Shown piece by piece: positions 2,107 through 33,860 of a stretch of 42,698 nt of DNA. Numbering within the stretch: position 1 is the first letter of the stretch; the number at the start of each line of letters is the position of its first letter. Below the pieces are notes generated by a model, which saw only the letters and a program-made list of their open reading frames with translations, ran no database searches and was not told where the DNA came from. The stretch lies in the sequence record DRR723986_2999. One strand, 5' to 3'. Made by a program: the position numbers and the translations under genes.

Positions 2107-2113
2107 TGCAAAG

Positions 2114-15296: not shown

Positions 15297-15385
15297 GAAT
15301 GCAATACTGAAGCGGACCCTCCGCGCAAGGACCTCTACGGCTTGAATCTTGTATATTCTTGCCTGAACAGATCTTGGAGGGACAT

Positions 15386-15799: not shown

Positions 15800-15828
15800 C
15801 CCGTTTCCCGAACAAAAGGAGCGCTCCC

Positions 15829-17457: not shown

Positions 17458-17480
17458 CCTGAAACAGCAGGAACATCTGG

Positions 17481-17507
17481 AACGGGCGGCTCTGGCCGCC
17501 CGTTTTT
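17481..17507 (+). terminator. Rho-independent terminator
   Basis: AACGGGCGGC-tctg-GCCGCCCGTT followed by TTT after the BCCT stop. Confidence 0.8.
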
Positions 17508-17682
17508 GGATCCGAACATGACGAGCCACGTTGCAGTCATCGCGGACAGGCGAAGCGCGAGCCGGATTCAGGGAACCGCCGCCTCGAAATTTTTTGGATT
17601 GTTCCAGACCCGCGCGAGGCGAGGGTCGACCGGATGATCCGACGGCCTCTTAAAAGCAGGCTGCGACCGCCAGCCGACTTGT

Positions 17683-18774
17683 CTAGTCGGCCAGCTTGGG
17701 GGCCAGTCGCACGCCGGGAGGCGGCGAGCTTTCACGGATCCGCACATCGGGTTCGATCACGATGGGCGTATTGGGCACGCGGTCACCCGCGATCTGGCGC
17801 AGCAGGGTCAGTGCTGCCAACCGTCCGATCTTGTCCGGCTGGGCTGACACCGTCGTCAGCGCGGGCGTACGCGCATCGGCGCCGTCGATATCGTCGTAAC
17901 CGGTAATCGCCATGTCCGGCCCCGGCTCGATCCCCGCTCGCCGGAACGTGGTCATCATTCCAAGGGCGACGAGATCGTTGAAGCCGACGATGGCTGTGGG
18001 GCGATGTTCGGCTTCCAGGATCTTCGGCACTGCGGCCCGGCCATCGGCCTGAGTCATCAGCTCGGGCAGGTCAAGCTGGCTTGCGGGATCGATCCCCGCT
18101 TCTTCCAGCGCCTTGCGCCAGCCGGCATTGCGATAGCGGCCGGTCGAGCTGCCACGGCGACCGCCAACCATGGCGATGTCCTTGTGCCCCTGTTTGATCA
18201 GGTGCTTGGTGATCTGATAGGTGCCGGCAAGATCGTCGCCGCGTACGCACGGTGCCCATACCCCCGGAACCTCGCGCGCCACCAGCGTCACGGGTATCCC
18301 CTGGTCCACCAGCCTGTTGATCTCTTCGGCCGAAGTTCCGACCGAAGGACACAGGATCAATCCGTCCGCGCGGTGCTGAAGCAGCGTGTTGACGAACGCA
18401 CGCTGGCGTTTGACGTCGTCGCGGTGGTTGCAGATGAAGATCATCTGCCCCTGCTCTTCCAGAACGTCCTCGAGCGCAGAAAAGACTTCGGCGAAGTAGG
18501 GGTTCAGGATGTCATGAACGGCAACGCCCACAATCTGGCTGCGGGCGGTTCTGAGAGAAGCCGCCGACCGGTTGTAGATATATCCGATCTCCTCCGCGGT
18601 CTGCTTGACCTTCGCCCTGGTTTCCTCGGCAACAAGCGGACTGTCCCGAAGCGCCAGCGACACGGTTGCCGTGGAAATACCGAGCTGGTCGGCAATGTGC
18701 CCAAGAGTGAGCCTTTTACCAGGCTTTTGCGGAAATTCCGGCTGGGAGGGAGGGGAACCGTTGTCTTCAGACAT
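17683..18774 (-). CDS. LacI family transcriptional regulator
   Basis: TLGHIADQLGISTATVSLAL, GYIYNRSAASLR, NPYF, FNDLVALG, TGYDD, PALTTV. Confidence 0.94.
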   Translation of the reverse strand: MSEDNGSPPSQPEFPQKPGKRLTLGHIADQLGISTATVSLALRDSPLVAEETRAKVKQTAEEIGYIYNRSAASLRTARSQIVGVAVHDILNPYFAEVFSALEDVLEEQGQMIFICNHRDDVKRQRAFVNTLLQHRADGLILCPSVGTSAEEINRLVDQGIPVTLVAREVPGVWAPCVRGDDLAGTYQITKHLIKQGHKDIAMVGGRRGSSTGRYRNAGWRKALEEAGIDPASQLDLPELMTQADGRAAVPKILEAEHRPTAIVGFNDLVALGMMTTFRRAGIEPGPDMAITGYDDIDGADARTPALTTVSAQPDKIGRLAALTLLRQIAGDRVPNTPIVIEPDVRIRESSPPPGVRLAPKLAD

Positions 18775-18889
18775 TCCTATTTCTCAATAACCGCAGCGGC
18801 GTTGGGAGAGACCGTTATAGCCCTCTCCCCTCTGGGTAAACAGGTTTTTCTGTTTTTCCGAAGTTTGGGATCGAAGCCCCTCACAAAGT

Positions 18890-19426
18890 TCAGCGCCGTC
18901 CAGCGGGAGCGGAATCGTCGAATTCCTCACGTAGATTGACGACAACCCTGCGGTTCTGAGACTGACAGGTGACCTTGTCGCAATCCGTTACCGGACGCTC
19001 CACGCCATACCCCTTCACCCACATGCGCTTGGGATTGACCCCCAGCTTGACCAGTTCGGCCATGACCGCGTTCGCCCGTTGGGTCGACAATGTCTTCTGC
19101 GCAGCCTCGCTGCCAGGATCGTCGGCGTGCCCCTGGATCTTGACCAGCCACTTCTTGTTCGACTTCAGCCACTTGGCCTGATTTTCGATTGTGATGCGGG
19201 CCTCATCAGTAACCACAGCCGAGCCCTGGTCGAAATAGACCCGGCGACCGACATTGATGATGAATTCCTCTTCCGAACCCGACGAAATATTTCCGAAACC
19301 GGCGGCCGGTGCGTTGGTCACATCGGGTGACGACAATCCACCGGCGCTGTTGCAACCGGCGACTCCAAATGCGATCATGAGCGCAAAAACTGCGCCCCGG
19401 CCGATCCGGCCAAATGTATTTTCCAA
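18890..19426 (-). CDS. OmpA/Pal-like peptidoglycan-binding lipoprotein
   Basis: Lipobox VAGC, VGRRVYFD, IQGHADD, LSTQRANAV, GYGVERP, QNRRVV. Start uncertain (TTG at 19426 chosen). Confidence 0.85.
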   Translation of the reverse strand: MENTFGRIGRGAVFALMIAFGVAGCNSAGGLSSPDVTNAPAAGFGNISSGSEEEFIINVGRRVYFDQGSAVVTDEARITIENQAKWLKSNKKWLVKIQGHADDPGSEAAQKTLSTQRANAVMAELVKLGVNPKRMWVKGYGVERPVTDCDKVTCQSQNRRVVVNLREEFDDSAPAGRR

Positions 19427-19530
19427 GGAAGCCCCCAAACCCTCTTTCAGTTTCCCCCTCGCCCGGCAGCCCACAGCCCCTTCGACTGCAGCTCCGCCGG
19501 TCGATTGCAAATTGCTCCGGATGAACGGGC

Positions 19531-20175
19531 TCAGCCCGCTTTCTCTCCAAGATGCTCCAGCACCAGAACGCCGGTCCCCTTGGGGCAGCGCTGGTAAAGG
19601 TCGACAATGTCTTCCGGGAACATGCGCACGCAGCCACTCGACACATCATGGCCGATGCTCCAGGGCTCCAGCGTGCCGTGCAGCCGGTACCCGAGGTCGC
19701 TTCCATCCCGATAGAGATACAAGGCCCGTGGCCCGAGTGGATTGTTGGCAGCTCCGCCTTCGACCATTCTTGGAAGATCCGGTTGCCGCTTCAGCATCTC
19801 CGGTGGCGGCACCCACCGCGGCCAAAGGGCCTTGCGGTCAATCCGGGCGCGGCCGAACCACTGGAAGCCTTCACGCCCGACGCCAACGCCATAACGAAGC
19901 GCGGTGTTGTTTTCCCATACCCAGTACAGGAAGTGATTGTTGGTATCGACCACCACGGTGCCGGGTGGCTCGTCACTGAAATACTTCACCATCTGCCGAT
20001 GCCAGACGGGATCGATCTTCTTGAAGTTGGTTCTTCTGTATTGAAATCCGCTATCTTCCTGATAGCCACTGAAATAAGCGTTTGCAGCTGCATTGGCGTG
20101 CGCCACCTGCGGCAAGGCCAATGTGCCTGCCGTGGCTGCTGCCCCTGTCAAGAACCTGCGGCGGTTCAGCTCCAT
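19531..20175 (-). CDS. L,D-transpeptidase (YkuD/ErfK family), Tat-exported
   Basis: NRRRFL Tat motif, RYGVGVGR, NPLGPRALYL, catalytic HGT...SSGCVRM. Confidence 0.93.
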   Translation of the reverse strand: MELNRRRFLTGAAATAGTLALPQVAHANAAANAYFSGYQEDSGFQYRRTNFKKIDPVWHRQMVKYFSDEPPGTVVVDTNNHFLYWVWENNTALRYGVGVGREGFQWFGRARIDRKALWPRWVPPPEMLKRQPDLPRMVEGGAANNPLGPRALYLYRDGSDLGYRLHGTLEPWSIGHDVSSGCVRMFPEDIVDLYQRCPKGTGVLVLEHLGEKAG

Positions 20176-20305
20176 CCCACACCTCCCTTAAAGGCTGGCG
20201 ATCCTTCCTGACCGGCGGTTGTTTTAACCCCGGCGGGTATTAAGACGGGAACTATCCAATCCCGTCAACCGCCTAAGGCCAGCGTACGGGCAGATGCAGC
20301 CTTGA

Positions 20306-21211
20306 TCAGATCCCCTTCACGCGTTCCCGGTAGAGGATGTAGAGGCCGGATGCGACAACGATGGCTGCCCCGAGGATGGTCGTATACGTGGGCACGTCGT
20401 CGAAGATCAGGAAGCCAAGCGCGATCATCCAGACAATCTGCGTATAGATGAAGGGCGCCAGCACCGGTGCAGGCGCGATCCTGTGCGCCATGATGAACAG
20501 GAAATGCCCACCCGCACCAAAAGCGCCGGTCGCGAACAGCAGAACCCATGTCCACAGGTCCGGAGGCGTGACCCAGACCGAGATACCAGCCGGCGCCATG
20601 GCAATGGCTGCGACAATACCTGAAATGATCAGCATTCCGGCAGAGCTGTCCGTTGCCGTGAGCTGGCGTGTCAGCAGCGCATAGACCGCATAAAAGGACA
20701 TGGCCGCAACCGAATAGATCGCCGCCCAGTGCATACCGCCAAGTCCTGGACGGGTGACCACCAGAACCCCGATGAAGCCGACAATGATCGCAATCCAGCG
20801 GCGTAATCCGGCCCATTCCCCAAGCAGCGGCCCGGCAAGGGCCGTAATGACGAACGGCGCGGCGAACATGATCGACATGGTTTCAGCCAGCTGCAGGTAA
20901 CGAACCGCCAGGAAGTTGAAAATGGTGGTGCCGAGTAGACAGAACGACCGCACGATCTGCAGAACCGGCCGGTTCGTCTTCAGGAGCGAAGGTTTCTTCC
21001 AGACCTGGAACAGGACCAGCGACAGGATCACATGACTGACGAACCGCATCCAGACGATCTGCAGCGTCGGCAGGCTGGCCGACATGTATTTGGCCGTTGC
21101 ATCCAGAACGGAAAAACTGAGGCAAGCCAGCACGATGAGACCGATCCCGGCGAGCGGCGCCGTGGCAGCGGCGGCATTGCCGGTCGAACGGTGCTGACTG
21201 TCATGCGCCAT
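20306..21211 (-). CDS. DMT/EamA family transporter
   Basis: About ten TM helices, LLGEW.G.RRW...VGFIGVLVVTRPG, LAPFIY. Confidence 0.9.
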   Translation of the reverse strand: MAHDSQHRSTGNAAAATAPLAGIGLIVLACLSFSVLDATAKYMSASLPTLQIVWMRFVSHVILSLVLFQVWKKPSLLKTNRPVLQIVRSFCLLGTTIFNFLAVRYLQLAETMSIMFAAPFVITALAGPLLGEWAGLRRWIAIIVGFIGVLVVTRPGLGGMHWAAIYSVAAMSFYAVYALLTRQLTATDSSAGMLIISGIVAAIAMAPAGISVWVTPPDLWTWVLLFATGAFGAGGHFLFIMAHRIAPAPVLAPFIYTQIVWMIALGFLIFDDVPTYTTILGAAIVVASGLYILYRERVKGI

Positions 21212-21343
21212 CGGTGGCGGCCCTTTTCAAACGATCATCCGCAGATGACAAAGAGAGTAGCGGACATGTCCCGGCAGGAACGGTCCGGTTGAGATAATTG
21301 CACCAACCCACTACCTAACCTTAAAAGACAAGCGGGGACGGTT

Positions 21344-21799
21344 ATGCCGGTTGCAGAAATTGAAACATGGCTGGGACGCCTTTCCATTACGGAAGTTGAC
21401 GGCGCATTCACCCAATTACACTGGAACGGGCCCTCTGGCAAAGAAGAAACACCGTTGCTCAAGGAAGCGGCACGCCAGGTACAGGCCTATCTCGCGGGTG
21501 ATCTGAAAACCTTCGACCTGCCGCTCGCCCCGAAAGGCGGCGAGCTGCACCAGGCGGTGTTCAAGGCGATGCTCGCAATCCCCTATGGCGGAACCCGCAC
21601 CTATGGCGACCTTGCCAGGGAACTGGACACATACGGGCAGCCGATCGGCCAGGCCTGCGGCGCCAACCCGATACCGATCATCATCCCCTGCCACCGGATC
21701 CTGTCGGCGAACGGCCTTGGCGGATATTCCGGCTCGGGCGGTACGGAAACAAAGATCGCCCTTCTGAAACTGGAGGGTGGCTACCCGTTCCTGGTCTAG
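21344..21799 (+). CDS. ogt: Methylated-DNA--protein-cysteine methyltransferase
   Basis: IPYGGTRTYG and NPIPIIIPCHR (PCHR active-site motif). Confidence 0.93.
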   Translation: MPVAEIETWLGRLSITEVDGAFTQLHWNGPSGKEETPLLKEAARQVQAYLAGDLKTFDLPLAPKGGELHQAVFKAMLAIPYGGTRTYGDLARELDTYGQPIGQACGANPIPIIIPCHRILSANGLGGYSGSGGTETKIALLKLEGGYPFLV

Positions 21800-21940
21800 C
21801 GCAACTCAAGTCGTCGATATCAAACACCTGCCACTCCGGCCCTGTCGATAAAGGCAAAGACCGGAGCAACGGCAGGGACCCGCCGAGACGCATGCTCTGA
21901 CCGATTAGTCATATCACGCGCACGGCAGGCTCACATTTTC

Positions 21941-23914
21941 TCACAGGACCAGAGAATCTGCTCCCGTGATCTCGACAAACTGCGGTCGGCTGTCGGGCAG
22001 CTCAAGCTCGTCTGCAAGCGCCGCCAGCGGGTCTGCATCCCTCAACGGTCCGAAATCGAAGCCCGACAGTTCTTCCAGAAAGGCAACGGACACCTGGAAC
22101 GTCTTGTATTCACCAAAGGCGAACCCTTCGACAGCTTCCGACTCGCGGCGGTCCTGCAGGTATTTCTGAATGGCCTGTCCCTGGCTTAACAGATAGGCGG
22201 TCGCGTGCAGGCGAAGACTGCCGTCGTCCTGCAAGGCATCCATCACCACCACTTTCCAGTACTGCAGGGGCAGATTGATGCCGACCCCATCGAGGAACGG
22301 ATCCTCGTCGTCGTCGAAAAGGGGGCCGGTAAAGACCGTTGCCCGGAAGGCATGGGTCTTTGTGCTGTCGAGGATATGGTTTTCCAGACCTTGCCAGGTG
22401 GACCGGTTCTGGTTGAGGGAGGAATGCTGCGGCGAGGCGTTCGTGTAGTGGAACGTATCGTCGTTTGCCAGTTGCGCCACCGGGCGGTCATCGCCCCAGT
22501 TCGGGTCCTCGCGCCGAACCATGTGTCCCCGGTCCAGATCTCCCGGGAAGTCGCCCTTGCCGAGCTGCGCTTCCACCGGAATGCGCCGATCGAAAAACCA
22601 CTTGTCCGGTTTCTTGCGTTTGATCTTGATTGCCTTTTCGCCGTCGATGTTGACGACAGTGACCACGGGGCTTCTGCGATCGACATCATAGAGAAGCCCG
22701 AAGTGGGTATAGCGCAGCTCATGCGGACGGCCGGCGAGCGCATCCGTCGGGCTGGCCAGATTGAACATGCCGTCCGGCAACTTCGGAAAGTCGACCTTTT
22801 TCGACAGGAAGTTGGGATCGTAGCCGTTCCGGCCGATAAAATGGTTCGGGTCGTGGAATCCGTCGGCCACCTCCTGTTCAAGGCTAGCCTCGACCAGGAC
22901 CTGCGTGGGCCGGTTGCCTGACAGAAGGTCCCGCAGCGTGCTCGCCCTGACAGCGCTGTTGGCAATTCCATAGGCTCCGGCGAAGTGCAACCCCACCACC
23001 TTGTTGCGATCAAGGCTCAGGATCGGCGAGCCGGAGTTTCCACCGAGCGTGGTGCAGTCGTGGCTGAGTACGGCTCCCGGCGCAACCGGCATCATCTTGC
23101 CCGGAGCAAACCGCTTCACATCGTAGAGACCCTTGAAATACTTCTCCATTTCGGTGCGATCGTTTCGGCTGTCGAAGGCCGGATAGCCGATCACCGCGAC
23201 GATCTCGTCCGTTTCCGCGTCCGTATCCACCAGAGGCAAGGGCGCAACGGCGAAGCCGGCAGGTTTTTCGATCCGCCCGATCGCGACGTCGGCGCTGGCA
23301 TCATCTGCAAGATAGGTGAAGCGAAGGATCTCGGCCGGGCGCTCGTCTGACGGCAACGCGCCAACCTCTTCGTTGAAATCCACGCGCGCACCGTAACGGA
23401 CCATCGTGAAGGGCGAGCGCATGAAGACGCCCTCTCCCCTGGCGTTTCGGCGTGCGACAATCTTGGCGACGTGCCGGTTGGTCACGACAAGAAGATGCCG
23501 GCCATCGGCTTCTTCTCCAACCACCCAGGCGGTTCCGCCCCAGGTCATCGAGTGGTTGATGAATTCAACCCGCCCGACCGAGCCGATCCAGTGTTCGTTC
23601 CGCTTGATCTTGATGTCTATGTCGGCACCGAACTCATCCGGCAGCGGGATCAGCGAGACCGCGCCGTTTTCAACGACCATCGGCGGCCGGGTAACCAGTC
23701 GCACGATGGCTTCCAGTTGCGTCAACGGCGTGCCGGCGGCTTCAAGCTGGCCGAGGGACATATCCAGCGCATCAAGCGTATCCGGTATGTCCAGTCTAAG
23801 TTGCTCGACAAAGGGGTGTCCTGCCTCGATGGCGCGTTTCGCAGCCTCAAGCCGTCCGCCCGATTTCAATGCTTCGAGCCGTCCCTGACTTTCCAATAAT
23901 GCTCGCGTGTTCAT
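21941..23914 (-). CDS. Trypsin-like serine protease fused to DNA/RNA non-specific endonuclease (EndoG/NucA family)
   Basis: Triad H148 (TNRHV), D209 (ADVAI), S294 (TTLGGNSGS). The nuclease has DRGH (H464) and TFHYTNASPQ...LNQ..W.GLEN. Strong GGAGGA Shine-Dalgarno upstream. Confidence 0.92.
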   Translation of the reverse strand: MNTRALLESQGRLEALKSGGRLEAAKRAIEAGHPFVEQLRLDIPDTLDALDMSLGQLEAAGTPLTQLEAIVRLVTRPPMVVENGAVSLIPLPDEFGADIDIKIKRNEHWIGSVGRVEFINHSMTWGGTAWVVGEEADGRHLLVVTNRHVAKIVARRNARGEGVFMRSPFTMVRYGARVDFNEEVGALPSDERPAEILRFTYLADDASADVAIGRIEKPAGFAVAPLPLVDTDAETDEIVAVIGYPAFDSRNDRTEMEKYFKGLYDVKRFAPGKMMPVAPGAVLSHDCTTLGGNSGSPILSLDRNKVVGLHFAGAYGIANSAVRASTLRDLLSGNRPTQVLVEASLEQEVADGFHDPNHFIGRNGYDPNFLSKKVDFPKLPDGMFNLASPTDALAGRPHELRYTHFGLLYDVDRRSPVVTVVNIDGEKAIKIKRKKPDKWFFDRRIPVEAQLGKGDFPGDLDRGHMVRREDPNWGDDRPVAQLANDDTFHYTNASPQHSSLNQNRSTWQGLENHILDSTKTHAFRATVFTGPLFDDDEDPFLDGVGINLPLQYWKVVVMDALQDDGSLRLHATAYLLSQGQAIQKYLQDRRESEAVEGFAFGEYKTFQVSVAFLEELSGFDFGPLRDADPLAALADELELPDSRPQFVEITGADSLVL

Positions 23915-24070: not shown

Positions 24071-27000
24071 CTAGAACAATGTCGACGCGTCGACCGGTTC
24101 GTTTCTTTTCGCAGCATCAGCCCCGATCACGGCCAACGCCGCTGTCAGGGCTGGCCCCATGAGCCTGGGTGCAAGGGCAGCTGCAATGTCCTGGGCAGAG
24201 CCCGCGGTCATCGCCATTGCCAGCGGCCGCATCAGCCGTCGCTCGAAAACACTCCGGGCACGCCGGGCCCCTTCTTCCGTGTCGGGATAGTCGGCCGCAT
24301 AGGCCAATCGCCGCAACAGCGCCCGGGCGGTTGCTGGCGGATCCTTCCGCGAAAGCAGACTGGTGACCCGCGCCATCAGCAAGACATCGCTCTCGCCGTT
24401 GCCCCAGTAAGACGGCGGCGTACCCGGGTAGGACCAGATACCGCCACTGAAGCGACGCCACCGTTCGGCCGCCCGCGCAACCGTCGGCGCATCCGGAACA
24501 GCATTGAACACTGCAAATGCCCCTACCCAGTCGCAGGTAAGGCCCAGTGCCCCCAGAATTTCCGGTCCTTCGATCTCGATGTCGCTGGAATAGCGTTCGA
24601 AACTGTCGAAGAGATCAGGCGTTCCCAGCATCTCCAGCGTTTCATGCAACCCCTCGTAAAAGCCGCGCAGATATTGCGCCATGCGCGGACTGTGCTGAAT
24701 GCGTGCAAGAACGCTCAAGGGCGCGATCGCAGGGTTCATTCGGGCAATGGTGTGCTGATCCGTGTCGGGATGCTGCTGTCCGGTCATGATCGCAAACCGC
24801 TCGGCGCGGTTGGCACCCTGCCGGATTGCATCTGCCGGGTACTCCGAAACCCTCTCGCCGAACCTGAAGACGGACATGGCAACCGGATCCAGGATCTCCA
24901 CATACTCCGGCCGCCCTTCCTGGCTGGCCATGAGAGCGAATTCCAGCGCCCCTTTCAGGGCAATCCTGGAACCCTCGGAACGCGCCTGCCAGGCTGTTGC
25001 CGCCAGTTTTTCATCACCACGCAACCGGGCGACAAGTCCGTCGAAATCCGCTTCCGCCTCGATTTCCAGCAGGACCAGCCCGTAGAGGCCCGGGTCTTCC
25101 CGGCTCAATCGTTCCAGCAGGGATTTCGGCAGCTTCCGCCAAAGGGACATGGCCCGCGCCCACTGGCCGGAGAGCCAGAAATACGCAAGCGTGGCAGCAG
25201 CTTCGGGACGGGAAGGTAACGGATTTCGCGGAAAGGCGTTGTTGAGGGTGAAGATATGATCGGCCTCGAACACATCGCCCCGCCGAAGGGTCAGTTCGAG
25301 TTCGCGGATCAGTTCCGGCTCGACCTCCTCCGCTTTCGAAGTCGGAACCGGTTCGGATGTTCCCTGCTCGCTGCTGGTGTAGCGCGCGCGGCGCGAGCGT
25401 TCCCCGCGCTCCTGCAGAATGGCATTCGTCGCCGGAAGAGGAAGTTCGTCCAGTTCATCTTCGCTGAGGCCCGCAACGTCGGCTGCGGTGAATTCGGGCA
25501 TCGGGTCTCCGGCACGCGTCACCTGGAAGGCATGATAGAGCGCGGTCTCACGGTCAAACCCGGCAAACCAGTTTGCTGCCGCCCGGTCTATTCTTGCGGC
25601 CAGCTCCGGCTTTTCGACGTAGAGCATGGGCAGGATTTCCCGCCGCAGGTCGCTGCGGTGTTTCAGCCAGTCCTGACCGTCAACGGCCACCAGCCAATGG
25701 TGGCTGCTGAGTTCCTGCCAAAGTCGCCTGGACGCAGCTTCGTCGATATGCTCACCGAGCCCGAGCGCCGGCGCCAGAACGAACTGGATTGCCTCGGCGC
25801 TGATCCGGCGCAGGACAAGACCAGGGTGTGCCAGCTTCGCCAGCAGCGGGTCGTCAATGCGCGAAAGGATAGCCCGGTAAAGATAGGCTTCCGTGATGCT
25901 GCCTGCTTCGCCGTATTCCAGTTCGCCCGGATCGAAGTCCTCCGCCTGCGTTACCTTGGCTGAAAGCCGCAGCATCAGCGGGTTGCCACGCGAAAGTTCG
26001 AAGATCCTGTCATGCAAATCCGGCGGAGCCCCCAACTTGTCCAGAAGATTGCGGGATTCCGTCTCGCTCAGACCTTCCAGCTCCAGAGGCGGTCCCTCGA
26101 TGCGTTTGCGGACGGAATCGAGCGCATCTCCCCGTCCGGCCGCAATGATCGAGATCGGCGACAGCCCGGCCCGCACCAGATTGTCCAGAACCTCGAACAG
26201 CAGAATGGGCCGGGTTTCGCCATGACCGCGCAACACTTCAAGCGTATCCAGCACCAGGACCACCTGCCCGCCATGCGAGCGCACCGCAGCGCCCATGGCA
26301 TCGACCAGCTCGGTCGGCAAAAGGGTACTGCTCACCGTCGTGCCGGTCGTTTCCGCATTGCCGGAATACTTGAGCCTCAGGTCGCGCAGTCTGGGGGCTT
26401 CGTCTGTCAGGATGTCACCCAGCTGGCGGGAGAGCTCATGCACCAGCTTGTCGGGATCTTCCAGGTTCAGCCCGCGCCGGTCGAAGTCCAGGCGCAGAAC
26501 GATTGGCGCCTTTTGAACAGACCTGTGTTCCGCCATTGCCCGGTCAATCAGAAAGGATTTGCCGATGCCCGGCAGGCCGGTGATGAACAAGGCGCTGACA
26601 GGTGTTTTTTCCTGAGGCCGCGCGCACCAGTCGAGCAAGCGGGCCAGTTCCTTCTCCCGGCCAAAAAACTCTCGGCTCAGCATGGCATTGGCCCGCCTTG
26701 CTGCATCCACGCGGTTCATGACACCGCGCAGGCGCACCAGCAACGGATAGGCAGGCGCACTCGGTCCGGCCCTGTCGAGGTCATCGGATATCTCCTCGAT
26801 CCGTTTGAGCTGATCCTGCTCGGGCAGATCCGGAGTCTCCGCAATCAGTCGTTCGATGGTCTCCTGCGAGAACGGTTCGTCACCACGCAGGGCTCTGGCA
26901 ACAGGTGTGTCTTCCTCCGGTGTTTCGATGGTCTTGAGCACACCATGGCGAGGCCCGTTGCGAAGAGACCAGACCGGCTCGGAGGATATTTCCAGGACGA

Positions 27001-27169
27001 CCTTGTTGAGCTCTGTCAGCAGCCGGGCAATCGTCAATGGCGTCAGCTTGTCCTGCAAGACCTTGGACGCCGCCTCCACCGCATCACGCGGCGTGAAGGT
27101 TTTGCGCGTTGCGGCAAACCGCATGGCCGCCTTCAGGCCTTCCGCGAGCTGATCAGCGTCCTTGCTCAT
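24071..27169 (-). CDS. STAND-class (NLR-like) P-loop NTPase with C-terminal helical/TPR-like region
   Basis: FFGRE, Walker A GLPGIGKS (K204), Walker B VVLVLD (D308), sensor IIAAGR, LEGLS, GxP motif RGNPL, winged-helix end KHRSDLRR, ALYH, then about 450 aa of helical sequence. Confidence 0.85.
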   Translation of the reverse strand: MSKDADQLAEGLKAAMRFAATRKTFTPRDAVEAASKVLQDKLTPLTIARLLTELNKVVLEISSEPVWSLRNGPRHGVLKTIETPEEDTPVARALRGDEPFSQETIERLIAETPDLPEQDQLKRIEEISDDLDRAGPSAPAYPLLVRLRGVMNRVDAARRANAMLSREFFGREKELARLLDWCARPQEKTPVSALFITGLPGIGKSFLIDRAMAEHRSVQKAPIVLRLDFDRRGLNLEDPDKLVHELSRQLGDILTDEAPRLRDLRLKYSGNAETTGTTVSSTLLPTELVDAMGAAVRSHGGQVVLVLDTLEVLRGHGETRPILLFEVLDNLVRAGLSPISIIAAGRGDALDSVRKRIEGPPLELEGLSETESRNLLDKLGAPPDLHDRIFELSRGNPLMLRLSAKVTQAEDFDPGELEYGEAGSITEAYLYRAILSRIDDPLLAKLAHPGLVLRRISAEAIQFVLAPALGLGEHIDEAASRRLWQELSSHHWLVAVDGQDWLKHRSDLRREILPMLYVEKPELAARIDRAAANWFAGFDRETALYHAFQVTRAGDPMPEFTAADVAGLSEDELDELPLPATNAILQERGERSRRARYTSSEQGTSEPVPTSKAEEVEPELIRELELTLRRGDVFEADHIFTLNNAFPRNPLPSRPEAAATLAYFWLSGQWARAMSLWRKLPKSLLERLSREDPGLYGLVLLEIEAEADFDGLVARLRGDEKLAATAWQARSEGSRIALKGALEFALMASQEGRPEYVEILDPVAMSVFRFGERVSEYPADAIRQGANRAERFAIMTGQQHPDTDQHTIARMNPAIAPLSVLARIQHSPRMAQYLRGFYEGLHETLEMLGTPDLFDSFERYSSDIEIEGPEILGALGLTCDWVGAFAVFNAVPDAPTVARAAERWRRFSGGIWSYPGTPPSYWGNGESDVLLMARVTSLLSRKDPPATARALLRRLAYAADYPDTEEGARRARSVFERRLMRPLAMAMTAGSAQDIAAALAPRLMGPALTAALAVIGADAAKRNEPVDASTLF

Positions 27170-28908
27170 GGCGATGATGCTCCTTCGGCCGGAAGCAACG
27201 GTGCGAGAGACCTTTGCAGATTTTCCGAGACGGTTTTCACTTCCGCACTGCGATAGACCGTTCCCTGGGCTTGCACGCCGTGAAGGGCCTGCATCAGAAC
27301 GAAATCGACCACATGCGTCGGCAGGCCAAGCCCCAGCGATCGGTTGATCGCCTCAAGCGTATGACGCACATCCTCGCGGTCGAACTGGCCGATGTAATCC
27401 ACCATCACCCCCGGCCCGGTCAGCGCACTGGCATTTTCCGCCTTTGGCCCCGGAACGCTGTATGTCTCTCCACCGGCCATGACAAATCGAAGGCGCGTAT
27501 CGCTCAGGATCATTGCCAGAAGCAGTTCCAGTTGCTGTTGTGCCGCCTTGCGCAAGCCTCCGCGCGGATTGTCGAAATAAATCCAGCTCGGCTTGTCCGC
27601 GGTTGCGCCGGTCGTCTTGGCCAGGAGGTCCACCAGTTGTCTGGCGCGGTCCTTGTCGCTTGCCCCTTCACTGGTTTCGTCGTCCGCAGCCCCCGGCCGT
27701 GCCAGCAGCGGCGTTCCGCCGTGCAATCTCTCGTTCAGCGTTTCCAGCAGGTCTTCCATTCCCAGAGACAGTTCAACCCTGAACACCTGCGCCGCTTGAC
27801 CGTTCTGCGCCAGAACCTGACACAAGAGATCGTAGGAAAATTCAAGACCGGTCGTCTGGTCGATTTCCATCCGCTTGATCCAGATCCCGCGCAAGTGACG
27901 GGCGGCTCCCCGCACCACGTCATGGATGGCATGACAATAGCGCTGCCGTCCGATAATCAGATGACCATCGACACGCCCTGTCAGCGAATAGATGTAAGGC
28001 GGTGCCCGGTCCTCCGCAATTGCCTGGGTAAATTCCTCTATGCCAGCGAAGGTGGCGTAAGGAACGATCTCGGAAACGCCGTTCAGCTGTCCCTGATGGA
28101 AGCCTGCGAATGCAAGATCCGTGTCGAAAACCGACCCGCCTGACGACCCGGGTTTGGTGACGCCGTCCTCCCATTCCAGTTGGATACGAGGAGGATCATC
28201 GATCGTCGCCCGACCGGTAACGAAGGTGACGCCCCTGCCGTTGTCGTCCTGTCTGTGGCTCAGGCAAAGCTTTCTCCGCCCGGTGATCCACGCCGGAGGT
28301 TTCGCCGGCAATTCGTAATACGTTGTCATCGGTTGCTCGATGGCGAGCAAGGCGACATCCGGGTTGGCACGCAGGATATCCCCGTCCTGCAGGCCGACAT
28401 CCCATTGATCGTCATGGCAAGGCATCTCGAAACGCACACCAAGCACGCGCAGCGACTTGCTCCCTTCTTGCGTGCGAACCGTGAGGCCGGACCGGCGCTC
28501 CTTCCGCTTGTCCTTGACCGTCACATGCCAGGCGGTCAGCGCGAGCCGGTGAGACACGAGTGTCGCGATACCGCAAAATCCTATTTCATCGAAAACATAC
28601 AGCTTGAAGCCCAGCATCTTGTGCGCGAAATCACCGAGATCCTCGAGGTCGAAATTGGCGGCGTTGATCGGCTCGATTGGTTGGGTGAGGTGGAACATGA
28701 ACTCCCAGCCGAGATTTTCCTCGTTCAGAAAATCAGCCAGCAGTTCTTCAAGAGGCTGCCCGGTGATGCCCGCCGTGCTGCGCAAGGCATCCAGCGTCAT
28801 CAGGGAATCCGTGAACCCCTGAACCCGGCGCAACACCCTGTCGACAGCCGCTTCATTCTGCTCCAGATGCTGCTTCAGCTCTGCACTGGTTACCGGCATG
28901 ACCAACAC
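27166..28908 (-). CDS. Trypsin-like serine protease fused to a degenerate STAND-like P-loop domain
   Basis: Triad H128 (TAWHV), D184 (PDVALL), S256 (TKPGSSGG). The C-terminal half has IIGRQ, a degenerate Walker A (DQTTGLEFS), Walker B-like WIYFDN and LRFVMAG. Stop overlaps the next start (ATGA at 27166-27169). Confidence 0.8.
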   Translation of the reverse strand: MLVMPVTSAELKQHLEQNEAAVDRVLRRVQGFTDSLMTLDALRSTAGITGQPLEELLADFLNEENLGWEFMFHLTQPIEPINAANFDLEDLGDFAHKMLGFKLYVFDEIGFCGIATLVSHRLALTAWHVTVKDKRKERRSGLTVRTQEGSKSLRVLGVRFEMPCHDDQWDVGLQDGDILRANPDVALLAIEQPMTTYYELPAKPPAWITGRRKLCLSHRQDDNGRGVTFVTGRATIDDPPRIQLEWEDGVTKPGSSGGSVFDTDLAFAGFHQGQLNGVSEIVPYATFAGIEEFTQAIAEDRAPPYIYSLTGRVDGHLIIGRQRYCHAIHDVVRGAARHLRGIWIKRMEIDQTTGLEFSYDLLCQVLAQNGQAAQVFRVELSLGMEDLLETLNERLHGGTPLLARPGAADDETSEGASDKDRARQLVDLLAKTTGATADKPSWIYFDNPRGGLRKAAQQQLELLLAMILSDTRLRFVMAGGETYSVPGPKAENASALTGPGVMVDYIGQFDREDVRHTLEAINRSLGLGLPTHVVDFVLMQALHGVQAQGTVYRSAEVKTVSENLQRSLAPLLPAEGASSP

Positions 28909-29197
28909 CGTATCGAGAATCGTTAAAACAATGGAGCCTGTCTCTTCGAGCCGGCACGTCAGTCAACCGCCGACGGTCGGATGAGAATATGCGTCTTGTC
29001 GGTCAAAATACGGCCAACCGCACGTTCTCCCAGGCTTCGGAACCTAAGGACACAATTATAGCGTCATTCAAGCTGAAAATAAACGCACAAGTATACGCCG
29101 ACTGATGCGGCCGCAGACGCTGAAAAGGACGGTCCTGTGCTCGCAGCAAAGCAACAGGTATCGTCCTCATTCCACTCGTCCTGACGCCGAAACCCGT

Positions 29198-29536
29198 TTA
29201 CCGAACGAATTCGACGGTCACGAAAACAAGTTCCGCTTCACCCGTGTTGGTGAGATCGTGCACGAAGGCCGTATCCGGCGACAGATCCGACATATGCCGG
29301 GTATCACCCGCCCTGTAGGTCACGTCCAGAATGCGGCCATCCGCCTGACGAGAAGTCGCCTTGCCATCGGTCAGGACGCTCCAGAAATAAGGCCGCTCGT
29401 GCCGGTGGGCGGGCAGTGTCTCTCCCGGCGCCAGTCGAAGATGCCAGACTTTCACGCCGTTTACTTCCGACACCAGATGCGTCCCGACCCTGTCGGTCGC
29501 CATTGCGATCTCTGCCTTGCTCATTGGGTTGGTCAT
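29198..29536 (-). CDS. Cupin domain protein
   Basis: LAPGE.LPAHRH and HDLTNTG...LVFVTVEF. ATGA overlap with the OYE stop. Confidence 0.85.
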   Translation of the reverse strand: MTNPMSKAEIAMATDRVGTHLVSEVNGVKVWHLRLAPGETLPAHRHERPYFWSVLTDGKATSRQADGRILDVTYRAGDTRHMSDLSPDTAFVHDLTNTGEAELVFVTVEFVR

Positions 29537-30624
29537 GCTGCCACCGGATAGCTTGTGTAACCTGCGGCATCGCCACCGAAGAGCGTCGACCCGTCGAAAT
29601 CGGCAAGCGGCAATCCATCCGCCAGGCGGCGCGGAAAGTCCGGGTTCGCGATGAAAGGACGACCGAAGGCAACGAGGTCCGCATATCCATCTGCAAGGAT
29701 CCGGTCTGCCTTCACCTTGGTATAGCCACCGGCAACAATGACGGTACCGGAGTAGACCTCTCGCAAGGCAGCCCGGAAGCTTTCGGGCGTTTCAGGCGCG
29801 TCGTCCCAATCGGCCTCGGCAAGATGAACATAGGCAAGACCGATCTTGTCCAGTTCCCCGGCGAGCTTCAGGATCGTCTCAGGTGCTGCCGGATCGTCCA
29901 TGCCGCGCTGGGTGATGAAGGGTGAAAAGCGAATGCCGGTCCGCTCCGCCCCCATGACTTTTGAAACGGCATCGGCCACTTCCCGCGCAAACCGGATGCG
30001 GTTTTCCTGACTGCCGCCATAAGCATCCGTCCGCCGATTGGAGGTCGATCGCAGGAATTCGTCGATCAGATACCCATTGGCGGCATGGATCTCGACACCG
30101 TCAAACCCGGCTGCCCTGGCGTTGGCTGCAGCTGTCTGGTAGTCCTCGACGATGGCAGAAATCTCTTCAGCCGTGAGTGCTCGCGGAACGGGACATTCGA
30201 TCATGCCACCCTGCCCGGTCTCCGGATCAACCGCCCAGATGGACGCACCCGGGGCGATGGCCGAAGGAGCGACCGGCTGGCCTCCACCCTGGAACTGGGC
30301 ATGGCTCATGCGGCCGACATGCCAGAGCTGCAACACCATGCGTCCGCCTTTTTGGTGAACGGCGTCCGTCACCTTGCGCCAGCCATCGACCTGTTCCGCC
30401 GAATGGATACCGGGAGTGAGGCTGTAACCCTGGCCCTGCGGTGAGATCTGCGTGGCCTCGCTGACAATCATCCCGGCGCTTGCCCGTTGGGCGTAATAGT
30501 CCGCCATCATGTCATTGGGCACATTGCCCGGCTGCGTACTGCGCGAGCGCGTCATGGGAGCCATCACGATGCGCGACGGCAGGGCAAGCGGACCGAGGTC
30601 ATATCGGTCGAACAGGCTGGTCAT
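29533..30624 (-). CDS. Old Yellow Enzyme family alkene reductase (NemA-like)
   Basis: MAPMTRSR, YYAQRAS, QLWHVGR, EIHAANGYL (HxxN and Tyr), FGRPFIANPD. Start MTSLF at 30624. Confidence 0.94.
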   Translation of the reverse strand: MTSLFDRYDLGPLALPSRIVMAPMTRSRSTQPGNVPNDMMADYYAQRASAGMIVSEATQISPQGQGYSLTPGIHSAEQVDGWRKVTDAVHQKGGRMVLQLWHVGRMSHAQFQGGGQPVAPSAIAPGASIWAVDPETGQGGMIECPVPRALTAEEISAIVEDYQTAAANARAAGFDGVEIHAANGYLIDEFLRSTSNRRTDAYGGSQENRIRFAREVADAVSKVMGAERTGIRFSPFITQRGMDDPAAPETILKLAGELDKIGLAYVHLAEADWDDAPETPESFRAALREVYSGTVIVAGGYTKVKADRILADGYADLVAFGRPFIANPDFPRRLADGLPLADFDGSTLFGGDAAGYTSYPVAA

Positions 30625-30644
30625 GGAAAGTCCTTTCACAAACG

Positions 30645-31316
30645 TCAGTTGATCAGGGCGCCGCCGTCGACATCGATCACGGCACCGGTCATGGAAGGGT
30701 TGTCGATCAGGAGGAGATAGGCCGCCGCCACATCCGCCGGCTTTGCGAAACGCCCGGCGGGAAGGGTCTCAGCAGCCTTGTTCAGCATGGCTGTCCGGGC
30801 AGCTGGATCCATTGCGGCGTAAGCGGATGTATCGGTAAGGCCCGGGCTGACGACATTGACCCGGACGGGAGCAAGCTCCTTCGCCAGCACCTTGGCACCT
30901 GCCTCCAGCGCCGCATTCATTGTGGTTTTCACAAAGGTTCCGGGAACCGTTCGCCGCGCTAGAAAACCGCTGGTGAATGTTATGGTACCGCCCGGTCGAA
31001 CATGCTTGGCCGCAGCTTGCGCCACTGCGACCGCACCCCAGAATTTCGTATCGAAAGCGGTTTTGGCTGCCTTGAGATCAAGACCGGACACAGGTCCACC
31101 CGGTGCCTGGCTGCCAGCCGTGAAAACCACATGGTCAACCGGACCGATCGCGGCGAAATAGACAGCAACCTTTTTCGGGTCTTCAACGTCCAGTCCATTG
31201 GCGCGCCCTGCGCGCAAGACCTCTCCCGGCCGGCTTTCCAGCGCGTCGGCCACGGCACTTCCGATGCCGGATGTACCGCCAATGACCACGGTTCTTGTTT
31301 CCTGGGTAAATGCCAT
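30645..31316 (-). CDS. Short-chain dehydrogenase/reductase, atypical active site
   Basis: VIGGTSGIG, VRVNVVSPG, MTGAVIDVDGG; no YxxxK at the expected position (FVKTTMNAALE). Confidence 0.88.
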   Translation of the reverse strand: MAFTQETRTVVIGGTSGIGSAVADALESRPGEVLRAGRANGLDVEDPKKVAVYFAAIGPVDHVVFTAGSQAPGGPVSGLDLKAAKTAFDTKFWGAVAVAQAAAKHVRPGGTITFTSGFLARRTVPGTFVKTTMNAALEAGAKVLAKELAPVRVNVVSPGLTDTSAYAAMDPAARTAMLNKAAETLPAGRFAKPADVAAAYLLLIDNPSMTGAVIDVDGGALIN

Positions 31317-31317
31317 C

Positions 31318-31707
31318 TCACGCACTCCTTTGGTCGGTTTCCCGGAAGACGGTTTCAATCAGCTGACCGGTGGGCGTGCGAAAGAACAGACGACGCTCGC
31401 CCAGTTCCGGCAGCTCCATGGGGGAATAGGCAATGCCAAGCCGTTCCAGCTTTGCCCGGAAGGCCTCGTAACCTTCGAGGCGGAAACCGATGTGGTCCCA
31501 GCCGTCGGCCTGCCGATCCTCTTCTGCGTGTGGAGGAATTCCGATCAGATGAATGAGAGGTTCATTGCCGTAGTAGAGCCAGTGCCCCGGAATTTGGCGG
31601 ATGCGGCGAGGACGCGGACGCTCCTCCAGACCGTCGAAGACCCGAAGGAAGAAGGCACGTGTCGTCACCAGATCGTGGGTTCTAATGGTGATATGATCGA
31701 GCAGCAT
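31318..31707 (-). CDS. VOC/glyoxalase family protein
   Basis: LDHITIRT, IHLI, WDHIGF, LFFRTPTGQLIE. Confidence 0.88.
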   Translation of the reverse strand: MLLDHITIRTHDLVTTRAFFLRVFDGLEERPRPRRIRQIPGHWLYYGNEPLIHLIGIPPHAEEDRQADGWDHIGFRLEGYEAFRAKLERLGIAYSPMELPELGERRLFFRTPTGQLIETVFRETDQRSA

Positions 31708-31824
31708 CCCGTTTCCTTTCCGGCAGCAATCATCTGACTGCCGTTGTTGCCCACGAACCTAATGCTTGCGACAGAGCCAGATAATTGAGACAATTCCGAA
31801 ACCAAAATTCGGAATTTTCGAATA

Positions 31825-32703
31825 ATGATGGACAATCTCGCACTGTTCGTGCGCATTGCAGAAACGGGAGGCATTGCCTCCGCGGGCAGGGAGATGGGCT
31901 ATTCCCCCGCTACGACGTCCGAGCGGCTGGCAGCACTTGAGGCTCACTATGGCGTCAGGTTACTGACACGGAGCACGCGCGCCCTCAGTCTGACCGAGGA
32001 AGGGCGCTTGATGCTGGACGGCGCCCGTCGCCTGCTCGCCGAGGCCGAAGAGCTGGATGCCCGTATCCGGTTAGGCGCGGAAAGACTGGCCGGACCCATT
32101 CGCCTGTCAGCACCGCTTGACCTCGGCAGAACACGCCTTCGGGCAGTGCTGGATCGGTTTCTGGAAGCTCATCCGGACGTGACGATCGATCTTCACCTGA
32201 GCGACGGTTTCGTGGACGTTGCCTCGCAGGGGTACGACCTTGCGATCCGGTATGGTGAGTTGAAGGATTCAACACTTATCGTCCGCAAGCTTGCGGCCAG
32301 CGCCCGGATTGTCTGTGCGGCTCCGTCTTACGTGGAACGCCATGGCCGTCCGCACCATCCCCGGGACCTTGCCCGGCACGATTGCCTGCTGATGCGTTTT
32401 GGCTCCGAGCCCGACAATGCCTGGCAGTTCCTGATCGACGGGAAGATAGTGCGCTGTCCGGTCAGTGGGCGGCGCACGGCAAATGACGGCGGGCTGGTGC
32501 GCGACTGGTGTCTCGCCGGGTTCGGGATTGCCCGCAAGTCCCAGTGGGATGTTGCTGAAGACCTGGCAGCGGGCAAACTCGTGCCATTGCTGCGGGAATT
32601 CGAGCTGCCCCCCGCCGGGCTACAGGCTGTTTATCCAAAAGGCCGGTCAGGGGTGCGGCGGATCAAGGCCTTGCTGGAGGAACTGGAAACTGCATTCAAA
32701 TAA
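31825..32703 (+). CDS. LysR family regulator divergent from the VOC-SDR-OYE-cupin operon
   Basis: LEAHYGVRLLTRSTR.LSLTEEG and GYDLAIR; CrgA-like substrate domain. Confidence 0.93.
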   Translation: MMDNLALFVRIAETGGIASAGREMGYSPATTSERLAALEAHYGVRLLTRSTRALSLTEEGRLMLDGARRLLAEAEELDARIRLGAERLAGPIRLSAPLDLGRTRLRAVLDRFLEAHPDVTIDLHLSDGFVDVASQGYDLAIRYGELKDSTLIVRKLAASARIVCAAPSYVERHGRPHHPRDLARHDCLLMRFGSEPDNAWQFLIDGKIVRCPVSGRRTANDGGLVRDWCLAGFGIARKSQWDVAEDLAAGKLVPLLREFELPPAGLQAVYPKGRSGVRRIKALLEELETAFK

Positions 32704-32728
32704 ACGCAGTCCAGCCGACAGCGATTGG

Positions 32729-33709
32729 TCAGTCGTATTCGGGCCAGACTGCGCCCCCTGCCCCGTCCGGCCGGTACTCCAGCCGTCCCTTTTGAATCTG
32801 CCATTCGATGTAATATTCGCCCGTACTCTCGACGACGGGTTCAGCGCCCCGGACCACCGGGTCGAACAGGGTCAGACGCTGTGAATGTGCGCCCTTGTGG
32901 CAAACCGCGACAAAAAGCGGACGTTCCGGGTCTTCGCGCATGGTGTAGATACCGTCCTGCTCGCAATTGTCCGCATCACCCGAACAAAACGAGCAGCCAG
33001 AGATATCGAGTGGAACGACCTCTCCGGACACACTGTCCGACACGACGATCCGGGCGTCTGGCGTGGGCTCGAATGTCCACGACAGGGAGCTGCCCACAAT
33101 CTCGACTGCTTCGCCCGGCACCGGCTCGCCCTTCCGGCTTGCGTCTTCGACCAGTTCGTAGGAAGGGCACCACGGATTGGCAAAATCCTCCAGTAAAGCC
33201 AGCGCCTCGCTTTGCTGAAGTGCCAGCGTCATCTCGCAGGACGCCATGTTGATATAGGACGCGGTATTTCCCGGGAGCTTGCCAAGCAATCCGCATTCGC
33301 TCTGGCGCAGCGCTTCCCAGGTTTTTCCACCTTCAAACAGCTGTTTCGTATGCGCGGGATTGCAGAGCCGTTCAGCGAGTTTTTCGCGTCTGCGGTCCAG
33401 TTCCGCCCGCCGTTCCGCTGCCCGGTCCTCCAGGCACTCGCCAATCGCGGCGCCGCCGATCCGGTTCGCTGGATCCGCCTTGCAAGACGCAATCTCGGCT
33501 TCAAGACCCGCCGGCAATTTCGGTTCGGGATCGGGCGTCTGCGCGGTTGCCGCTGAACCTGTTCCGGCAAGGAGAACAATGAATGCCAGGAAAGGCCGTA
33601 GGGTTTTGCCGTGATCCAGCGTCGCAGAGGGCCGGGCAGCTTTGCCGCGCCTGACGGCTGTGGATTGCCCTAACCAATTCTTTCTCCCGCCAGTCACCGT
33701 GGCACTCAT
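32729..33709 (-). CDS. Exported protein with an LprI/DUF1311-like helical domain and a Cys-containing C-terminal domain
   Basis: Hydrophobic signal ending AATA. LprI-like pattern C...IGECL...W.ALRQSEC...MASCEM. C-terminal GCSFC...NC...CHKGAHS. Start uncertain. Confidence 0.6.
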   Translation of the reverse strand: MSATVTGGRKNWLGQSTAVRRGKAARPSATLDHGKTLRPFLAFIVLLAGTGSAATAQTPDPEPKLPAGLEAEIASCKADPANRIGGAAIGECLEDRAAERRAELDRRREKLAERLCNPAHTKQLFEGGKTWEALRQSECGLLGKLPGNTASYINMASCEMTLALQQSEALALLEDFANPWCPSYELVEDASRKGEPVPGEAVEIVGSSLSWTFEPTPDARIVVSDSVSGEVVPLDISGCSFCSGDADNCEQDGIYTMREDPERPLFVAVCHKGAHSQRLTLFDPVVRGAEPVVESTGEYYIEWQIQKGRLEYRPDGAGGAVWPEYD

Positions 33710-33860
33710 GGCATTCCCCCAGTTGCTGTTGACGACAGCGGTTGCTTGCGACGTCCTCGACAATCTTCATAAGCCGGATCAACCGTTTGTGAAACGCGAA
33801 TGCTCTAGCGCCGGAGACCTGGGCCTTGCATCCCCCAGATGGGCCATGGCCGGTAGACAC

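Follow-up and report, generated by a model that had tools for sequence, protein, structure and literature searches.

A probable LypA-type protease with a degenerate AAA+/STAND-type C-terminal domain in a three-gene operon of the Roseibium/Stappia group

LypABC of Caulobacter crescentus is among the closest described counterparts of the operon treated here. According to its report (PMC13236601, Nat Microbiol 2026), LypA comprises a CARD (residues 1-80), a trypsin domain (85-305) and an ATPase domain (324-592) that lacks the conserved residues of Walker A and Walker B. LypB is a STAND protein of 1027 aa with an N-terminal domain and repeats, and LypC joins a trypsin domain to an endonuclease. 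The accessions given there are AGJ94600.2 for LypA, ACL94045.1 for LypB and ACL94044.1 for LypC. ATP-Mg has been docked in the ATPase domain of LypA by AlphaFold3 with an interface predicted template modelling score of 0.96. Deletion of this domain destabilises the protein, and the pocket triple mutant T356A/S360A/F361A is stable and inactive. LypB K230A and D335A are inactive, as is LypC S296A, but the LypC nuclease mutants are not. In a two-hybrid assay the CARD of LypA docks on LypB's N-terminal domain, and an extended-data legend of the same source states that the Lysobacter protease carries the same ATPase-like domain. The subject of this text is a three-gene operon, A-B-C, on a 42,698-nucleotide stretch of DNA from sequence record DRR723986_2999 (the window), and in particular the gene A product's C-terminal domain, here called domain X. 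Gene A probably encodes a protease of LypA type, which belongs to a CARD-NLR-like cell-death system of three genes and is composed of a CARD-like domain, an active trypsin-like protease and an AAA+/STAND-derived C-terminal domain with a helical lid.

The likeness of A-B-C to LypABC extends to the number of genes, their order and the parts that they encode, with window proteins of 580, 1032 and 657 aa. Both hosts are alphaproteobacteria, and neither operon lies in a defence island. The window host differs in belonging to the Roseibium/Stappia group, and its operon is known from sequence alone. The layout of domain X was known before, in that a C-terminal ATPase domain without Walker residues is in print for LypA (PMC13236601, 2026), and the window holds a further example. 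Judging from the residue numbering, an offset of 4 places the LypA pocket residues T356, S360 and F361 on T352, E356 and F357 of the T-x-G-L-x-F-S motif of the window protein. The family of A includes a Caulobacteraceae protein, P0270 of Brevundimonas diminuta, which is 27% identical over its full length (BLASTP 2e-31).

CARD-NLR systems of Lysobacter enzymogenes, Pedobacter and Azospirillum are anti-phage systems (PMC10312443; PDB 8SRZ, 8SS1), whereas the window operon is known from its genes only. The accessible text of Wein et al. (PMC10312443) describes three-gene operons that A-B-C matches, as well as the CARD-NLR operon of Lysobacter, which differs in having four genes and a gasdermin effector. 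The Azospirillum CARD-like domain's structure, 8SS1, was solved in the same study and is the one closest to the N-terminal model of A; the term 'Walker' occurs 0 times in that text. The NucA-peptidase 'System 3' (Kaur, Burroughs, Iyer, Aravind 2020) is found mostly in alphaproteobacteria and combines trypsin-like peptidases with a NucA endonuclease, sometimes in fused form (PMC7159879). Some 'System 3' operons add a STAND NTPase (nucleoside triphosphatase) fused to Death-like and trypsin domains, which corresponds to the A+B fusions described below, although the region between trypsin and STAND is there read as the Death-like domain bDLD2, and a degenerate NTPase domain is not mentioned in the section on System 3 (PMC7159879).

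The gene A product is divided as follows.

27166..28908, minus strand: gene A (LypA-like), 580 codons with a GTG start, from the open reading frame (ORF) list and translation; encodes a CARD-like domain, a trypsin-like protease and a degenerate ATPase domain
28609..28899, minus strand: predicted N-terminal six-helix domain of A, Death-fold/CARD-like, approximately residues 4-100, from the AlphaFold2 model
28009..28593, minus strand: trypsin-like serine protease domain of A, approximately residues 106-300, with the triad H128, D184 and S256
27169..28008, minus strand: domain X of A (residues 301-580), a predicted degenerate AAA+/STAND-type nucleotide-binding domain (318-510) with a three-helix lid (511-571)

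Recorded homologues of the gene A product begin at M4, with a length of 577 aa. The first-pass annotation of the window had described positions 27166-27965, which correspond to residues 315-580, as a catalytically dead STAND-like domain that repeats the motif order of the NTPase encoded by the neighbouring gene B. Residues 300-580 have no family match in Pfam, PADLOC or NCBIfam scans, and profile searches of PDB sequences, run for A, X and the N-terminal domain, returned trypsin matches or noise only. The AlphaFold2 model of residues 301-580, built on an alignment of 96 rows, has a mean predicted local distance difference test score (pLDDT) of 94.4 and a predicted template modelling score of 0.91. 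It begins with a helix (322-332), a strand (339-346), a loop, a helix (355-368), a strand (375-378) and two helices, continues with a strand (441-445), a helix (454-468) and two further strands (473-478 and 500-506), and ends with three lid helices (511-524, 531-541 and 554-571). The model thus consists of five strands alternating with helices, followed by the three-helix lid.

A Foldseek search of the PDB with this model gave 57 matches at E <= 0.001, and among the matches listed all are AAA+ ATPases (RFC, RuvBL, ORC/Cdc6, DnaA, Rpt, FtsH and p97), the best of those listed being 8fs4_B (E 4.8e-5, TM 0.41). When compared with 48,161 representative chains by VIA-align, domain X is closest to the STAND-TPR protein 6mfv_A (Z 10.6, root-mean-square deviation 5.4, 189 residues aligned). 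The next matches, at Z 8.2-9.6, are BrxC, Mpa, Cdc6/Orc1, ZAR1, MalT, NRC2, CED-4, Avs3, Apaf-1 and Avs5, and 66 chains reach Z >= 8. A second VIA comparison on Foldseek's top 993 chains agrees (6mfv 10.6, MalT 9.9, Apaf-1 9.6). Across both lists, in which all of the top 50 rows are AAA+/STAND ATPases by title, MalT scores 9.1-9.9, Apaf-1 8.4-9.6, CED-4 8.9-9.4 and Avs3 8.9, rows within one Z unit being read as tied. The model and its structural matches support a P-loop (AAA+/STAND-type) alpha/beta fold for the C-terminal 280 residues of A, which is the fold that the first-pass annotation had expected from AlphaFold and a fold search. A STAND origin of this domain is indicated because it carries an hhGR-like motif and has a specific profile match to the STAND domain of B. 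The hhGR motif ahead of the P-loop is reportedly typical of, or even specific to, STAND NTPases (Leipe et al. 2004). A full STAND module is defined by what follows the helical lid, namely a winged-helix domain and C-terminal sensor repeats; the X chain ends at residue 580 after its three lid helices and has neither of these parts.

The NTPase to which domain X was compared is encoded by the next gene of the operon.

24071..27169, minus strand: gene B (LypB-like), 1032 aa, with an N-terminal domain (1-165), an active STAND NTPase and a long helical C-terminal part

All five motif pairs proposed between A and B can be read in the translations, at the positions stated for them. IIGRQ of A (residues 318-322, 27943-27957) pairs with FFGRE of B (168-172), GIWIKRMEIDQTTGLEFS (341-358, 27835-27888) with LFITGLPGIGKSF (194-206), and WIYFDN (442-447, 27568-27585) with VLVLDT (304-309); LRFVMAG (473-479) is set beside IIAAGR (341-346) and IGQFDRED (506-513) beside LEGLSETE (364-371). 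BLASTP finds nothing between A and B, the best E being 0.65 in a different register, and no match between A and C. The comparison was carried to the level of families. A homologue search by shared words returned 7 close relatives, and one with a profile returned 6; phmmer with residues 301-580 against the full library gave 111 cluster representatives at E <= 0.001, 86 of them at E <= 1e-10, and nearly all of these homologues are 560-650 aa long and match at the same C-terminal place. Weak phmmer matches to P0113 (fn3/fibrinogen) and P0119 (TPR/CHAT) are spurious by their Pfam content. Alignment A2 consists of the window domain and 95 homologues, 92 from the phmmer search and three close relatives from the search by shared words, and excludes the window's own record, four long fusions, fifteen short fragments and the two spurious matches. 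Alignment A4 consists of 41 homologues of B trimmed to B residues 150-430.

The hhalign comparison of the X family (96 rows) with B residues 150-430 (41 rows) gives a score of 35.9 (P 2.3e-4) over 125 columns, and aligns X 318-450 to B 168-312 in the register that had been proposed for motifs 1-3. The pairs that it recovers, X before B, are IIGR/FFGR, GLEFS/GIGKS, VFRVEL/IVLRLDF and WIYFD/VLVLD. G320 and R321 of X are aligned to G170 and R171 of B, F357 of X falls on the Walker A lysine K204 of B, and S358 falls on S205. Reversed profiles score 12-13, column shuffles reach at most 22.6 (n=60) and block shuffles at most 23.4 (n=60); none of these 120 shuffles attains 35.9, which lies about 8 standard deviations above them. 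The smaller alignment A3, when compared with A4, gives the same register at E 0.013. The second half of the domain behaves differently, X 451-580 scoring 12.2 against B 313-470 where shuffles score 13.2 +/- 1.5, and motifs 4 and 5 are without support at the profile level. Motif pairs 1-3 are therefore statistically supported and pairs 4-5 are not, because the profile signal stops after Walker B. The AlphaFold2 model places motif 4 on strand 4 (473-478), where the fold would have it, and motif 5 on strand 5 and the first lid helix (500-506 and 511-524), again as the fold expects. On these profile alignments, a relationship between domain X and the NTPase of its neighbour B is supported.

The eroded nucleotide-binding motifs of domain X are located as follows.

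27943..27957, minus strand: IIGRQ, the 'hhGR' equivalent ahead of the P-loop; G320 in 90/96 and R321 in 93/96 sequences
27835..27894, minus strand: strand 1 and degenerate P-loop, L339-S358 (LRGIWIKR MEIDQTTG LEFS), with F357 at the place of the Walker A lysine
27565..27588, minus strand: Walker B-like strand 3, SWIYFDNP, residues 441-448; strand 441-445 in the model, aligned to VLVLD of B
27463..27492, minus strand: strand 4, LRFVMAGGET, residues 473-482; sensor-1 position without arginine, strand 473-478 in the model

The loss of the Walker A lysine, first noticed in the window protein, is consistent across its homologues. Lys or Arg is present at positions 354-358 in 0/96 sequences, and position 357 is occupied by Phe in 83, Tyr in 7, Leu in 2, Ala in 2 and Gln in 1, with one gap. 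The flanking positions are retained, with G354 in 92/96 and Ser (69) or Thr (18) at position 358. A classical Walker A pattern occurs in 2/96 domains, in both cases elsewhere than at the P-loop position. The Walker B position 446 is Asp in 56 and Glu in 33 sequences, and the following position 447 is Asn in 41, His in 27 and Asp in 8, so that the second acid is mostly lost and E-D and D-D pairs together account for 6/96. The sensor arginine has likewise gone, as the first-pass annotation had read from a single protein: position 480, which on an alignment of the AG pairs would face B's sensor-1 Arg, is Phe in 47, Tyr in 20, Leu in 11 and Gly in 5. A consistent erosion of the catalytic signature of X, comprising the Walker A lysine, the second Walker B acid and the sensor-1 arginine, is supported by these aligned sequences.

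Domain X has acquired conserved residues of its own, namely R346 (95/96), W442 (94/96), R474 (89/96), G479 (93/96) and E481 (95/96), and position 340 is Arg in 84 and Lys in 8 sequences. R346 (27871-27873) lies at the end of strand 1 just ahead of the degenerate P-loop, and R340 is encoded at 27889-27891. Classical P-loops are without residues like R346 and R340 at these places, and both might take over phosphate contacts from the lost lysine. In 18 distant loci the highest conservation within A is found at residues 301-450, with 36% identity; the protease has 31% and the N-terminal domain 22%. Domain X is therefore not decaying, and the conservation in the alignments indicates that it is under purifying selection. 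As for the first-pass label 'catalytically dead STAND-like', the fold and motifs bear out 'STAND-like', and 'dead' is too strong. X may bind nucleotide, because LypA has a confident ATP-Mg model and its pocket triple mutant is inactive (PMC13236601).

Trypsin_2 of Pfam is found at residues 116-264 of the gene A product below the cut-off (E 1.5e-4), and in 56/60 of its homologues. The protease triad H128/D184/S256 is intact in 23/23 sequences, these being the window and 22 loci with relatives of A. The AlphaFold2 model of the N-terminal 102 residues has six helices (pLDDT 67.9). Its top VIA match among the 48,161 chains is 8ss1_A (Z 6.8, root-mean-square deviation 4.2, 76 residues aligned), the bacterial death-like (CARD-like) domain of the Azospirillum protease, and CARD and PYD entries rank after it. 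This domain has no match at the sequence level in the PDB profile searches. The structural match is supportive of a CARD/Death-fold-like N-terminus in the model, and is weak in absolute terms.

Gene B overlaps gene A, its ATG and the TGA of A being read directly as ATGA at 27166-27169. Gene C follows, and the three genes are arranged head to tail along the minus strand.

21941..23914, minus strand: gene C (LypC-like), 657 aa, a trypsin-like protease joined to a NucA-type endonuclease

B matches AAA_16 of Pfam at residues 167-314 (E 2e-11), with further NPHP3_N and NACHT-like matches, and its GxxGxGK[ST] motif with K204, as well as D308 and R346, is kept in 21/21 sequences. C matches Endonuclease_NS (E 6.2e-45) and Trypsin_2 (E 4.3e-14), and its DRGH motif (461-464) is intact in 19/19 sequences. 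The 22 loci with relatives of A, for which one genome per species was scanned, are all from alphaproteobacteria and belong to the Roseibium/Stappia group, several Rhodobacteraceae, Ectorhizobium and Aquibium. Wherever enough downstream DNA is available (18/18 loci), B and C follow A with order and strand unchanged, and contig ends cut the other 4/22. Natural fusions are known of A+B (P0063, P0067 and P0072), of B+C (P0129, P0223, P0236 and P0238) and of A+B+C (P0071, a RefSeq protein of Methylocella with 2277 aa). Each adjacent pair of genes, and all three together, exist elsewhere as a single chain in operon order. Some of the fusions on metagenome contigs could be frameshift artefacts, because A and B of the window lie in different frames (ATGA); the Methylocella fusion is a RefSeq record. 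The A-B-C system is rare, and the X profile has 1 match in 401 sampled genomes of the class, in the nearest genome only.

In the distant loci (L005-L023) C is about 50% identical, as against about 31% for A and about 32% for B, a gap that would be in keeping with rapid evolution of the sensor and adaptor parts next to an effector under constraint. P0095 and the cluster P0272-P0275 are proteins of 302 aa from Candidatus Dormibacteraeota, on contigs of up to 52 kb. P0095 matches X residues 369-565 (E ~1e-18), has a different N-terminal stretch of 86 residues and is without the protease; it could be a stand-alone X domain outside the proteobacteria. The flanks of the operon (12000-21900 and 29100-33800) encode Oxidored_FMN, SDR, LysR, EamA, YkuD, LacI, PAS-GAF-GGDEF and MGMT-like proteins. 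The 13 flanking ORFs scanned belong to housekeeping (metabolic or regulatory) families and form no defence island; no mobile-element gene was found among them, and no tRNA gene was found in the whole window.

The assignment of A to a LypA-type protease suggests the following course of events. B, an intact STAND protein with a long helical sensor region, would detect the trigger and oligomerise with ATP, in keeping with its family and with the LypB K230A and D335A mutants. A would be tethered to B through its CARD-like domain and B's N-terminal domain, as the two-hybrid contact of LypA and LypB suggests, and clustering would then turn on its protease. A would in turn free the effector output, either directly or through the protease of C, and this output could be C's NucA nuclease, other targets or both. 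In the LypABC/CARD-NLR scheme, the proteases of A and C would act in series and C or other targets would kill. By the same analogy domain X is most likely a non-hydrolysing module with possible nucleotide binding, which may hold the protease in a regulated state or aid oligomerisation and which would be needed for the stability and activity of A. Binding, nucleotide handling and proteolysis are projected here from the homologous system; the anatomy and conservation are observed in the window and its relatives.

A number of points tell against this assignment. Homology to LypABC is indirect, being drawn from the architecture, the protein sizes, the motif numbering and the Brevundimonas protein P0270. 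Structural Z scores do not separate STAND from other AAA+ clades; with differences of up to one Z unit counted as ties, structure alone gives an AAA+/STAND-type fold and picks no clade. The CARD-like call is taken from a model of moderate confidence (pLDDT 67.9) and a low Z of 6.8 (< 8), and Foldseek with the same model returns no match at E <= 0.001; because of this low Z and the absence of a Foldseek match, the CARD-like match is supportive and not strong. When the N-terminal domains of the three proteins are compared by hhalign, their profiles show no detectable similarity. The model of the iSTAND family, PF19995, has no match to A at E <= 1 and is matched by 0/60 homologues at E <= 0.01. 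GTA_TIM (PF13547), presumably a marker of RcGTA-type gene transfer agents (GTAs), is not matched in the nearest genome (G001, 99% complete, 0/1) and is matched in Caulobacter vibrioides, which served as the control. Without this marker in the nearest genome, a part in GTA release like that of LypABC is doubtful here, and abortive infection or regulated death of another kind is an equally likely role. A single marker in a single genome says little on gene transfer agents. Finally, the nuclease activity is dispensable in LypABC (PMC13236601), which makes the effector output step proposed above tentative.

An 'EAD principle', by which A, B and C would have an N-terminal adaptor domain in common, was considered and set aside, as hhalign found no similarity. 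The iSTAND and iSTAND2 modules (PF19995; Kaur et al. 2020, 2021) resemble X in being inactive STAND modules with eroded NTP motifs that often have a trypsin-like peptidase or a Death-like/EAD adaptor at the N-terminus. They differ in being the third component of MoxR-vWA ternary systems, in which they are predicted sensors, and no MoxR or vWA gene is present in the A-B-C operon or among the 13 scanned flanking ORFs. The PF19995 model also has 0/41 matches in related genomes. In 401 genomes of the phylum it has one match, an ORF at 1441-3357 of locus L024 (G445:C13), which is unusable as an iSTAND seed; the match covers the N-terminal 140 residues (30.5 bits), a GPPGTGKT P-loop that looks McrB-like by eye follows later in the protein, and the match is probably weak or off-target. 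With no match to the model and no MoxR-vWA partners in the operon or the 13 scanned flanking ORFs, X is best described as inactive STAND-like in general and outside the PF19995 family as defined. The language-model features of X in the ESM Atlas give a lead only, the nearest clusters carrying PF19995 scoring 0.91-0.95. Those of P0086, which is 28% identical to the window X, are likewise nearest to PF19995 clusters, with 11/30 matches in such sets. The single best ESM Atlas match is a DUF2972 cluster of Campylobacterota, which scores 0.94 for X and 0.96 for P0086, ahead of the iSTAND clusters.

A different role for domain X, unlikely though the best placed of the alternatives, is that it slots into or stacks on the STAND ring of B as a hetero-oligomer and thereby gathers the protease domains or holds them inactive, like paired sensor/helper NLRs. 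X is specifically similar to the NTPase of B from the hhGR motif through Walker B, its fold is of the kind that forms such rings, and in the fusions P0063, P0067, P0072 and P0071 A and B are one chain in which X stands directly ahead of the N-terminal domain and NTPase of B. A hetero-toroid of active and eroded STAND proteins has moreover been predicted for the GT4/HEPN system by Kaur et al. (2021, PMC8195603). There too the NTP motifs are intact in one partner and lost from the other, and hetero-oligomers are proposed, but the partners of such STAND or NLR pairs are full proteins, whereas X is a nucleotide-binding domain with a lid on a protease. The only direct data, those on LypAB, put the contact of A and B elsewhere, although a resting-state assay could overlook a contact made only upon activation. 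X is furthermore without the winged-helix domain. This domain contributes to STAND ring contacts. Plant sensor/helper NLR pairs combine an active with an inactive member and serve as an analogy only; the likeness to them that had been suggested for A is overstated, since X is not a full paired NLR, its winged-helix and sensor parts being absent. In a more specific and equally doubtful form of this idea, X would be a dedicated 'pseudo-protomer' that inserts in or caps the STAND oligomer after activation of B, so that the ring, and not the CARD tether alone, positions and switches on the protease. If this were true, A-B-C would be a bacterial hetero-oligomeric inflammasome made from one active and one inactive nucleotide-binding domain, and the fused A+B and A+B+C proteins found in nature would represent that inflammasome in a single chain.

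It is very improbable that X is a working NTPase in which other residues substitute for the classical ones; a candidate would be the nearly invariant R346, where strand 1 ends, or R340. R346 is present in 95/96 sequences and Arg/Lys at position 340 in 92/96, position 358 is Ser/Thr in 87/96 and position 446 is acidic in 89/96, and the pocket of LypA is essential and has been modelled with ATP-Mg (PMC13236601). These figures stand against the presence of Lys/Arg at 354-358 in 0/96 sequences, a second Walker B acid in few (E-D and D-D pairs in 6/96) and a mostly aromatic residue at the position aligned to the sensor-1 Arg. The idea that the motif parallels are due to chance and that X is an unrelated alpha/beta domain merely resembling the P-loop fold could appeal to the lack of a BLASTP match between A and B, of a Pfam family or PDB sequence match to X and of a profile signal against B in its second half, but it is close to refuted by an hhalign score about 8 standard deviations above shuffles, a confident model for which every structural match listed is an AAA+/STAND ATPase, and motifs that fall on the expected strands.

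The reading of A as the LypA-type protease of a CARD-NLR-like system is the one that probably holds, and the first-pass interpretation of its C-terminal part is, as a whole, partly supported, with the observation, the fold and the loss of the lysine confirmed. The comparison adds to the earlier description of LypA that domain X is specifically related to the STAND NTPase of its partner, that the change from Lys to Phe extends across 96 diverse members, that X is the best conserved part of the protease, and that fusions exist of all neighbouring gene pairs. The role of a non-catalytic nucleotide-binding domain on an inflammasome-like protease is a question already raised in print. Overall, an unannotated domain and with it a whole three-gene operon of Roseibium/Stappia-type bacteria can probably be assigned to regulated cell death of the CARD-NLR/LypABC type.

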